Source: a virus. From it: a stretch of DNA of 64,000 bases. The stretch spans positions 64,001-128,000 of the IMG/VR virus record IMGVR_UViG_3300045988_144812; one strand, written 5' to 3'. Positions within the stretch are counted from its first letter, which is position 1, and each line of letters opens with the position of its first letter. The translations under genes were made by a program, and so were the position numbers. This document shows, one piece after another, positions 24,880-26,113 of this stretch. The notes beneath the pieces were generated by a model. The model was not told the origin of the DNA. It saw only the letters and a list, made by a program, of their open reading frames with translations, and searched no databases.

Positions 24880-24946
24880 TTTTGTAGTTATTATTAAGAT
24901 TATTATTAGTATATTTGTATTTAGATTTATTATTAGTATTATTAGT
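24880..24946. repeat. left arm of a perfect 67-bp inverted repeat
   Basis: TTTTGTAGTTATTATTAAGATTATTATTAGTATATTTGTATTTAGATTTATTATTAGTATTATTAGT is the exact reverse complement of 26047-26113. Confidence 0.95.
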
Positions 24947-25008
24947 TTTTGTAGTTAGTTGTAGTTGTAGTTTTTGTTGTAGATAGTAGTTGTAGTTTGG
25001 AGATAAGT
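24947..25008. repeat. cluster of TTGTAG(T/A) short direct repeats
   Basis: TTTGTAGTTAGTTGTAGTTGTAGTTTTTGTTGTAGATAGTAGTTGTAGTTTGG lies directly inside the left IR arm. Confidence 0.8.
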
Positions 25009-25135
25009 TCTCTAGATTTTACTCTTCATAATAGAGTAGTAACTTAAGAAAATCACTACTCTATTATAAAGACTGAAACTACTTCTTCATATACACCTAG
25101 TAACTGAAATATTTTTTCAAGATGTTAGAAAAAGA

Positions 25136-25177
25136 ACCAGTCTATACGACTCCCCCACGAAGTGAGTATAGACTGGT
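25136..25177. other. 12-bp hairpin with a C-rich 18-nt loop
   Basis: ACCAGTCTATAC ... GTATAGACTGGT. Confidence 0.7.
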
Positions 25178-25700
25178 GGAGTTTAACATGCGAAAATAGG
25201 AAAATTCGAAAAGAATAGAATTTAGCTGGATTGGAAACAGCTTAACTTTGTCTTTTCATACAGAGTACCATTCTGAAAATTATCTCTTATCTTATCATCG
25301 ATGTTTATACAAACTGTCTAATAACACTAATGGATTAATAGTTTTAAAATTAGTATTTTGTAAATTTGTTAAAAATGGAATAGTGTTTAAATGGCTCTAG
25401 AATGCTCTAGGATTGATTTTCTTTGTTAAGTAAGGACATTTATCATCCTGACTATTTAATCCCTCTAAAATCGCTTCTATTGGCTTGTAATCGATATTGG
25501 TGTATAATTGCTAGTATAGCGATTTATAGTTCTTGATTATAGAACTACATCTGGATGTATTGGTGTATTAAAACCATCTTAGCCTATCTAACGTAGTGGG
25601 TGATATTACACAATGGTATTGTATTTGCTCTAGCATCATTTAGTCCTTTTGTGTAAACTAGGATTTATTGGCTTTGGTATTAAACACTCTAGATTCATCT

Positions 25701-25808
25701 TGCGCTGCGCTACTCTCACTCTGGTTATTTATCACCTACTGTCTAATTGGGTAATGCGCTGCGCTATACTAACTTTGGTGTTTGTTACCTACTGAAATAG
25801 TCTAGTGA
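25701..25808. repeat. two imperfect tandem ~54-bp units, each starting TGCGCTGCGCTA
   Basis: Unit 1 is 25701-25754 and unit 2 is 25755-25808. They share TGCGCTGCGCTA and ...ACCTACTG. Confidence 0.75.
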
Positions 25809-26046
25809 TATTTTACAATGACTGAATCGAGAACGGATATAGTTTGTCTTGAGATAGTGTTTAAATGGTTTTAAATGAGTTCTCGCTATTCAGGGATAAA
25901 TTTGCTTAAAGTAAAAGTATTTAAATTACGTAGTAATTTAAATACATATCCTTAGAGATTTTAAAACTAATTAATATAAATATTAATTAGTAATAGTTAA
26001 TAAGTAATATCTATCTATATTACTAAAGTAATATATCTAGATATTT

Positions 26047-26113
26047 ACTAATAATACTAATAATAAATCTAAATACAAATATACTAATAATAATCTTAAT
26101 AATAACTACAAAA
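26047..26113. repeat. right arm of the perfect 67-bp inverted repeat
   Basis: Exact reverse complement of 24880-24946, checked base by base. Confidence 0.95.

Follow-up and report, generated by a model that had tools for sequence, protein, structure and literature searches.

Genomic Context of the Locus

The DNA analysed here, a stretch of 64,000 nt called the window and used as the frame for all positions, belongs to a phiKZ-like jumbo phage from the human mouth, uncultured and with a genome of ~247 kb. The window has a GC content of ~33% and encodes a split RNA polymerase beta' fragment (~29% identity to phiKZ gp80), the tail sheath, virion proteins, an NAD-dependent ligase, and a ribonucleotide reductase whose gene is split by two group I introns. 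A human oral metagenome (PRJEB6997) contains a contig of 247,396 bp that encodes the exact protein neighbouring the locus and carries a repeat unit identical to that of the window. Among GenBank phages, neither the repeat unit nor the adjacent RNA block gave a single megablast or blastn match, low-stringency searches included. To our knowledge, almost none of the cis-acting DNA of phiKZ-like giant phages has been mapped, and essentially nothing is known about their replication origins, packaging signals, or regulatory sites; the literature on phiKZ transposon mutagenesis is silent on non-coding essential regions.

The inverted repeat sits within ~3 kb of non-coding DNA (~23700-26747; Table 1), the largest such stretch in the window. 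Reading through each stop codon singly across 23200-27100 opened no long frame, and Rfam covariance models run over 22800-27200 returned no match at the gathering score and none that was credible at E-values up to 10. The right end of the non-coding region is marked by an early promoter of the TATAcTATTaAnnTGAAC class, which occurs upstream of at least eight operons, position 26673 among them, and agrees with what has been published on jumbo-phage early promoters (PMC7598289). The lowest GC content of the window (25.3%) falls at 26001-27000. The genes around the locus belong to lysis, adhesin, and nucleotide metabolism functions, no polymerase, helicase, or primase gene is annotated among the ORFs of the window near the locus, and the GC skew tracks the direction of the genes. 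An origin of replication deduced from gene context or skew was rejected on account of these neighbours and of a skew that follows transcription.

The left side of the non-coding stretch is occupied by a gene for a large structured RNA, read leftward, which is 94% identical over 13 distinct sequences. Its predicted fold contains GNRA and UUCG hairpins, with loops that vary and stems that are held; standard pairs fill 99.8% of the cells, and compensatory double changes occur at 18 pairs, compared with 2-7 in slid controls and with none of 500 shuffles reaching 18. No Rfam family matches this RNA, and a probe made from it found no copy in bacterial species-genome contigs. The RNA gene may be a more interesting object than the repeat, and its position directly beside the repeat is something for which any model of the repeat must account.

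Table 1. Features of the non-coding region and its borders, in order of position in the window.
Feature	Position	Strand	Details
Hairpin terminator	23665..23697		Separates the + strand genes upstream from the RNA gene (3' end)
Large structured RNA gene	23700..24790 (~1 kb)	-	No Rfam family; 5' side abuts the left outer arm
Left outer arm	24795..24879		Homologous to the right outer arm (67/90 matches), not homogenised; side-specific differences fixed in all genomes
Small ORF, 37 aa	24845..24958	+	Spans the left arm; absent from the original prediction; open in 7/7 haplotypes; coding status uncertain
Left arm, perfect 67-nt core	24880..24946		No C on the + strand; TATTATTAG at 24901, 24928, 24937 (+)
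Conserved left end of the spacer	24947..25130		Five TTGTAG repeats (24949-24995) and a hairpin (25017-25078)
Intrinsic-terminator-like hairpin	25125..25177	-	For leftward transcription; stem 25136-25147 / 25166-25177; minus-strand U-tract 25125-25135
Conserved central spacer block	25368..25510
Hypervariable, indel-prone part of the spacer	25528..25860
Near-invariant block just inside the right arm	25960..26046		Palindrome CTAATTAATAT-AA-ATATTAATTAG (25967-25990); alternating 8-bp half-sites AGTAATAT / ATATTACT (26003-26034)
Right arm	26047..26113		Exact reverse complement of the left arm; TATTATTAG at 26048, 26057, 26084 (-)
Hairpin, 13-bp stem and 41-nt loop	26106..26172	+	Overlaps the outer end of the right arm; stem invariant, loop variable; no left-side counterpart
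Right outer arm	26114..26200		Inner 48 nt converted to left-outer sequence in L041, L042, and L051, giving a 115-nt perfect repeat
Right-flank array	26250..26597	+	TATTATTAG at 26250, 26376, 26399, 26519; TTATTAGTAT at 26378, 26401, 26512, 26588
Early-type promoter, TATAcTATTaAnnTGAAC class (site 26673)	26661..26692	+	Best PWM score of the window; serves gene 26748-26948

Architecture of the Repeat and Its Spacer

The original prediction described a perfect 67-bp inverted repeat, and all 67 of 67 positions of the two arms indeed agree. A repeat search widened it to 77 nt at 96% identity (24870-24946 and 26047-26123), and gapped self-BLAST traced weaker homology out to ~150 nt per arm (24795-24946 versus 26047-26200, 87%). 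Elsewhere in the 64 kb, self-BLAST detected no inverted repeat longer than palindromes of 18-28 nt, and the longest perfect inverted repeats in dinucleotide shuffles averaged 17.6 nt with a maximum of 26. The arms had been said to stand 1100 nt apart around an interior free of ORFs; the distance holds and no ORF of at least 60 aa is present, but one 50-aa TTG ORF occupies 25248-25400. The flanks given for the arms, GAAGTATTGA and GCAAAACATC, were found as described, and no target-site duplication borders the perfect core, again as claimed. A 7-nt direct repeat, CTATTCT, is present near both ends of the extended repeat and is not adjacent to it on the right side. The separate 13-bp hairpin that had been noticed at the outer end of the right arm likewise exists, CTACAAAAGCAAA at 26106-26118 pairing with TTTGCTTTTGTAG at 26160-26172 at a predicted -13.2 kcal/mol. 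The + strand is free of C over ~200 nt spanning the left arm.

The spacer is asymmetric, and its interior varies from 904 to 1275 nt among genomes, even where the arms are identical. Near its left end, the terminator-like stem (25136-25177) is found in different, compensated versions in three lineages. Near its right end, the near-invariant block contains a weak early-promoter-like match of 7 bits, directed rightward (26004-26035). An interior repeat, ATAGTGTTTAAATGG, was considered as a recurring signal and dropped, as its frequency did not exceed chance.

The arms share a short motif with the DNA to their right. Each arm carries three inward-facing copies of TATTATTAG, and four more lie on the + strand of the right flank, so that 10 of the 11 copies in the 64 kb fall between 24901 and 26519, within 1.6 kb. 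The exact 10-mer TTATTAGTAT occurs 8 times where 0.78 occurrences are expected, always within the locus, and the relatives show the same clustering of the motif, with 3-9 copies in the right flank. The right-flank array coincides with the lowest-GC stretch of the window; clustered short sites (10 of 11 TATTATTAG copies in 1.6 kb) adjoining AT-rich DNA (25.3% GC) correspond to the layout of an iteron-type or bipartite origin. The spacing of TATTATTAG shows no helical phasing, and the motif is partly low-complexity sequence of the (ATT)n type that slippage may have spread; these traits, like the lineage without a canonical left arm described below (L025/L008), sit uneasily with arms read as arrays of binding sites. 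Two other explanations of the arm sequence were abandoned. A weight matrix built from 8 clear sites of the phage early promoter scores the arms below 5 bits, and RNA pairing of the right arm with the motif copies of the right flank, although predicted, involves partners that are not homologous between genomes. A scan for the sigma-70 consensus found sites no more numerous than in shuffled sequences.

Conservation and Copy Correction of the Arms

Relatives were collected from IMG/VR and ENA contigs and fall into three groups: a close clade with 90-98% DNA identity, a distant clade whose downstream protein is ~70% identical, and a third lineage (L025/L008). A protein profile of the downstream gene retrieved the same 11 loci only and no more distant relatives. 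Wherever both arms are visible, the repeat is perfect (in 11 genomes, in a further two, and in a further ten), with a core of 67 or 68 nt.

The arms occur in two haplotypes, distinguished by 7 of 68 positions; all 7 differences are mirrored in the partner arm, which is the concerted evolution known from repeats that mediate flip-flop isomerism. The outer ~88 nt of each side behave differently: they are self-complementary at only 61-67 of 90 positions, evolve separately on each side, and are closer to their own-side orthologues (82-100%) than to the partner arm. On three scaffolds of 240-249 kb from different samples, the perfect repeat is extended to 115 nt, with the left-outer sequence occupying 48 nt of the right outer arm on its inner side. 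The switch point of this longer repeat falls within an 8-mer common to both sequences, which a de Bruijn assembler could not have bridged. Single-arm contigs, moreover, carry mosaic arm haplotypes. The mirrored differences, the 115-nt variant, and the mosaic arms together demonstrate that the arms undergo ongoing gene conversion, i.e., non-reciprocal homologous recombination with variable tract ends (67, 68, or 115 nt). This conversion keeps the arms identical within a genome while they change between lineages. The recent or ongoing homogenisation that had been suggested from the perfect identity is thereby borne out, haplotype differences being always mirrored and identity being extended outward to 115 nt in some strains.

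In lineage L025/L008, a different T-rich sequence without TATTATTAG takes the place of the left arm, and the spacer blocks and the RNA gene are kept. No inverted partner of the divergent left arm of L025 was found, the right arm of L025 being absent from the assembly. This lineage suggests that the left arm may be replaceable.

No other DNA within 13 kb is as conserved as the arms, which show zero differences between genomes whose flanking genes are 3-21% apart. The arms are 100% identical to the close relative and 91% to the distant one, and the 87 nt of the invariant block just inside the right arm reach 100% and 94%, respectively; the corresponding values for the eight flanking coding sequences are 79-97% and 50-77%. 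By this measure, purifying selection is demonstrably stronger on the arm sequence than on the surrounding genes. Under conversion without selection, the arms would diverge neutrally, and if only their pairing were selected, compensated changes would be tolerated, so the arm sequence must itself matter. For that reason, the proposal that the repeat is selected solely for a cruciform or for pairing fails: it leaves arm conservation above that of coding genes unexplained. To judge from its conservation, the arm pair is functional.

A Predicted Protein-Binding Control Region

Our leading reading, to which we give a probability of about 40%, is that the arms are mirror-image arrays of predicted protein-binding sites which bracket a variable spacer within the main non-coding control region of the phage, are homogenised by gene conversion, and only rarely cross over, with the products of such crossovers selected against. 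Each arm would present an array of three 9-bp sites (TATTATTAG), all facing inward. The 3-9 further copies in the AT-rich right flank and the palindromes just inside the right arm, which resemble operators, would add to these sites, and a sequence-specific phage protein would bind all of them. The bound arms would bracket, and perhaps loop out, the variable spacer, and in this way may organise initiation events at the boundary between the leftward gene for the large RNA and the rightward early operon. Such events could be those of transcriptional control or of a bipartite replication origin. Where the arms occasionally cross over, the spacer would be inverted, and selection seems to act against the resulting isomers.

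Orientation of the Spacer

The spacer had also been proposed to be an invertible segment. Direct inspection of ~20 contigs showed one orientation in all of them. The orientation was then probed with the 37-aa ORF over the left arm, which was searched for in a collection of 15 billion proteins. The peptide of the standard junction was found on 157 contigs and the predicted peptide of the flipped junction on 19-21. Six of the latter contigs were checked base by base, and in each, the exact left flank and a perfect arm lead into the interior in exact reverse complement. The entire flipped spacer is crossed by two of the six. The flips occur in at least four flank haplotypes, one of which is identical to that of a standard-orientation genome.

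All flipped contigs are, however, shorter than 10 kb. The standard junction lies on contigs above 50 kb in 133 index blocks and on short contigs in 31, whereas no contig above 50 kb carries the flipped junction, so that the share of flips amounts to 0 of ~135 long contigs versus 17 of 48 short ones. Four long contigs with a 41-aa peptide are not flips and represent the 115-nt-repeat type or an unresolved hybrid. If flips were fixed in 10% of strains, ~13 long flipped contigs would be predicted, and none was observed. One flipped contig has a coverage of 2.3 and ends 25 nt into the second arm, where a model of artefactual joining requires a gap in coverage. Confinement to short contigs is the pattern that coverage gaps at a 67-nt repeat would leave with assemblers starting at k=21-55, and the flipped junctions may therefore be low-coverage assembly errors. 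The flipped contigs were initially taken as proof of inversion and were downgraded once the length distributions of standard and flipped contigs had been compared. The long contigs thus show one orientation of the spacer only, and the standard orientation is clearly and strongly favoured. Inversion of the spacer nevertheless remains plausible from the sequence evidence, because the arms demonstrably recombine. For the proposed invertible segment, the evidence is thus divided: the flipped junction exists in six verified contigs, all below 10 kb, and is absent from contigs above 50 kb, where the standard junction fills 133 blocks.

The most developed form of this idea is an invertible cassette of promoter and terminator, in which recombination between the arms would flip the spacer and redirect transcription from the rightward operon to the gene for the large RNA. 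A promoter-like invariant block would point outward at one end, a terminator would block outward transcription at the other, and the switch, resembling phase variation, would depend on homologous recombination or on a recombinase whose gene lies elsewhere. The flips just described, with their exact interiors and their several flank haplotypes, speak in its favour, as does the asymmetry of the spacer, with the terminator at 25125-25177 (-) opposed to the 7-bit promoter-like site at 26004-35 (+). The outer arms, which would receive the transcripts, are homologous to each other, and putative viral invertons have been reported from metagenomes in the literature. Cyanophages, in addition, have repeat-flanked isomers without a known recombinase (bioRxiv 10.64898/2026.02.14.705889). 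On the other side stand the restriction of flips to short contigs, the low-coverage contig that stops within the second arm, and the weakness of the promoter match. It had been stated that no recombinase or transposase gene lies in or beside the repeat, and a search of 42 ORFs, confined to these 64 kb of the ~247-kb phage genome, likewise found no recombinase, resolvase, integrase, or transposase domain. The known invertase switches use short, defined crossover sites with no homogenisation beyond them, far shorter than arms with perfect identity over 67, 68, or 115 nt and variable ends. Repeat-mediated flip-flop isomerism of the chloroplast, HSV, or cyanophage type maintains two isomers at comparable frequency; no long contig is flipped here. 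Taken together, these data make such a cassette unlikely in our judgement, if still worth serious attention.

A Role at the RNA Level

The arms might act instead in RNA, either as a 67-bp stem closing around the spacer RNA within a single transcript, in the manner of an RNase III substrate, or as an antisense pair acting in trans. In the latter case, a + strand transcript of the right arm would pair without any mismatch with the mRNA of the small hydrophobic ORF over the left arm, as in type I toxin-antitoxin systems. The locus appears to be transcribed, given the covarying terminator in the spacer, the structured RNA next to it, and the early promoter at the right edge, and the predicted folds of either strand pair the arms. 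The ORF over the left arm is open in 7 haplotypes, with lengths of 37-45 aa and an ATG or GTG start, and most genomes lack a start codon in its right-arm copy. Beyond the right arm lies a hairpin; the motif copies of the right flank are complementary to that arm, with 34-47 of the 67 arm bases paired in predicted folds.

Several observations make an RNA-level function doubtful. The minus-strand terminator lies between the arms, so that a leftward transcript would normally not contain both of them, and no strong promoter is placed to transcribe either arm. The ORF has a poor ribosome-binding site, an open frame arises in 3.4% of shuffles, and as the ORF is built of triplet repeats, in-frame indels are expected anyway. 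The pairing partners of the arm in the flank vary between genomes. Selection for pairing would also permit G-U and compensated changes, and it does not explain the 100% and 91% conservation of the arms. The changes seen in the arms, known from two or three haplotypes only, count neither for nor against an RNA helix: all are mirrored Watson-Crick swaps with zero G-U states. The RNA gene, in contrast, passes through many G-U intermediates.

A broader proposal would unite the repeat, the asymmetric spacer, and the adjacent ~1-kb RNA into one undescribed module, a switch of promoter and terminator driven by recombination without a dedicated invertase. We regard this as a long shot. If it were true, transcription would toggle between the large non-coding RNA and the rightward early or lysis operon, and the identical arms would provide the same leader in both states.

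Mobile Element, Relic, or Artefact

The idea that the repeat is a passenger-less mobile element did not withstand comparison with the relatives. There is one copy per ~250-kb genome, at the same locus in all lineages, and neither a transposase nor a target-site duplication accompanies it; each such genome contains two arm matches, both at the locus, instead of the multiple copies that characterise MITEs and IS elements. A search for bacterial copies of the arm core gave no match in ~185,000 species genomes. The repeat might still be a relic without function, left by an old inverted duplication or by a decayed foldback or MITE-like insertion, of which the inner 67 nt are long enough to be kept identical by recombination. 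The outward fading of the arm homology, which fits an older repeat of ~150 nt, the CTATTCT direct repeats near both ends of the extended repeat, the lineage without the left arm, and the demonstrated gene conversion are all compatible with such an origin. A relic is, however, hardly expected to exceed all other DNA of a 13-kb stretch in conservation, unchanged even where flanking genes differ by 3-21%, and the single copy per genome, the lack of copies in ~185,000 species genomes, and the constancy of locus and orientation across lineages also argue against it, so that we consider this origin highly improbable. That an assembler made the repeat is practically out of the question, since MEGAHIT, SPAdes, and other pipelines recover the repeat unit from many independent samples with lineage-specific arm sequences, and even the several ~250-kb contigs that end exactly at the arm boundaries (24879/26114), where assemblers evidently struggle, break as contigs do when the reads themselves contain a genuine perfect repeat.

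Significance

With the predicted protein-binding arrays as the preferred reading, the locus represents the most conserved DNA of its neighbourhood, free of genes. As a possible origin, regulatory hub, or switch, it offers a candidate control region that can be put to the test in a phage widespread in the human mouth. Copy correction is visible here in action, in the form of conversion tracts of different length in different strains. The orientation data also call for caution in the identification of invertons from metagenomes, as a 67-nt repeat gave rise to apparent flips only where coverage was low.

Comparison with Known Systems

The lytic cyanophages A-1(L), N-1, and Elbi carry inverted repeats of 400-700 bp around ~30 kb of genes, and PCR shows that both isomers coexist; no dedicated recombinase has been established for them, and homologous recombination during concatemeric replication is the proposed driver (bioRxiv 10.64898/2026.02.14.705889). 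The locus studied here resembles them in that a lytic tailed phage carries inverted repeats, their position is conserved, and no recombinase is established. It differs from them in the length of the repeat (67-115 nt), in the segment enclosed, which is non-coding and 0.9-1.3 kb long, and in the single orientation seen in long contigs.

The inverted repeats of chloroplasts and herpesviruses are kilobases long and contain genes, their isomers are equimolar, and they evolve in concert by gene conversion. The arms of the phage repeat are similarly kept identical by copy correction, with a boundary that shifts by conversion, in this case from 67 to 115 nt. In contrast to those repeats, they are short and non-coding, and their isomers, if any, are rare.

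Invertible segments such as Mu G/Gin, P1 C/Cin, Salmonella hin, fimS, and the Bacteroides invertons cross over at sites of ~10-30 bp by means of an invertase that is adjacent or known, and each of their two states is easy to detect. The resemblance to them lies in an inverted repeat around ~1 kb of DNA, where the asymmetric spacer could carry a promoter at one end. The arms of 67-115 nt, the variable conversion tracts, the 42 ORFs without an invertase, and flips found only in low-coverage contigs set the phage locus apart.

The operator triplets OL and OR of lambda are looped by CI, and the bipartite oriC of Helicobacter and Bacillus flanks dnaA; in these systems, the clusters are ~1-2.5 kb apart, similar but not identical, and their binding proteins are known. 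Arrays of the lambda OL/OR kind need no perfect identity, so that conversion has to be invoked additionally for the phage arms. Unlike those clusters, the clusters here are perfectly identical over 67 nt, and the protein that would bind them is hypothetical. What they share with lambda OL/OR and with the bipartite origins is the arrangement of mirror clusters of short predicted sites, ~1 kb apart and located between divergent transcription units, with AT-rich DNA alongside.

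A candidate large RNA beside the left arm

The segment adjoining the left arm of the inverted repeat stands out in base composition, with a GC content of about 50% against 33% for the genome, and contains no ORF. It was recovered in 13 sequences representing three lineages, which share 94% identity, and its predicted fold comprises 345 pairs, 18 of them with compensatory double changes, as well as GNRA/UUCG loops. No Rfam family matched this RNA, and we put it forward as a candidate for a large non-coding RNA new to phages.

Features of the window and of related contigs near and beyond the repeat
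Feature	Position	Strand	Remarks
Large structured RNA gene (candidate)	23700-24790	-	~0.95-1.1 kb
Putative hydrophobic ORF, 37 aa, MKSLKSIVRSIDFVVIIKIIISIFVFRFIISIISFCS	24845-24958	+	spans left arm
Strong conserved hairpin, ATTATTCCTTTCAC...GTGAAAGGAATAAT	26419-26470	+	right flank
Inserted ORF, ~110 aa	L008:416-747		third-lineage right flank
tRNA-Tyr	20085-20168	-	
YadA-type trimeric autotransporter adhesin gene, complete	30155-31561	+	head, stalk and anchor domains, signal peptide
Genes for the two ribonucleotide reductase subunits, small and large respectively	38354-39904 and 45766-50080		one group I intron each
Group I introns of these genes	39166-39429; 47622-47991	+; -	
HNH endonuclease gene, free-standing	56455-57789	-	flanked by structural genes
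tttAAAnaTATAcTATTaAnnTGAAcc sites	2751, 5189, 9417, 12059, 19001, 26673, 29689, 52239	+	
tttAAAnaTATAcTATTaAnnTGAAcc weaker sites	22179, 30034, 42718	+	

Mixed contigs and variation around the repeat

In two related contigs (L043:1-3200 and L049:1-2862), a window-type 5' fragment of the RNA, the left outer arm and the arm are followed by a reversed spacer of the type found in L025, a third-lineage contig. These joins represent either genuine inter-lineage recombinants or chimeras; the arm and invariant block together provide 154 nt common to the lineages, a route by which such chimeras could form. In the third lineage itself (L025:12950-13170 with L008:1-1300; contig IMGVR_UViG_3300045988_120546), a T/C-rich sequence lacking the arm motif TATTATTAG takes the place of the left arm, and the ORF inserted in the right flank looks like a homing endonuclease. 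The right-flank hairpin has the same sequence in the window and in the related contigs L002 and L010, and is missing from L006.

The putative ORF across the left arm is open in all seven haplotypes, and several NCBI MAG phage records annotate it as hypothetical; its ribosome-binding site is poor. A short way upstream of the tRNA-Tyr gene, about 670 nt present in close relatives (L002:1564-2237) are missing from the window at 19141-19154, an indel lying within a further ORF-poor stretch (18946-19901).

Other genes and a promoter-like motif

The N-terminal ORF of the ribonucleotide reductase large subunit contains an extra middle segment, which may be an intein or an endonuclease insert. The YadA-type adhesin gene, whose carrier is a lytic jumbo phage, was probably derived from a host, and its presence might be a clue that the host is a Gram-negative bacterium of the mouth. 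A promoter-like motif, tttAAAnaTATAcTATTaAnnTGAAcc, recurs 5' of operons in the window, and fits the published description of the jumbo-phage early (virion RNA polymerase) promoter (PMC7598289).
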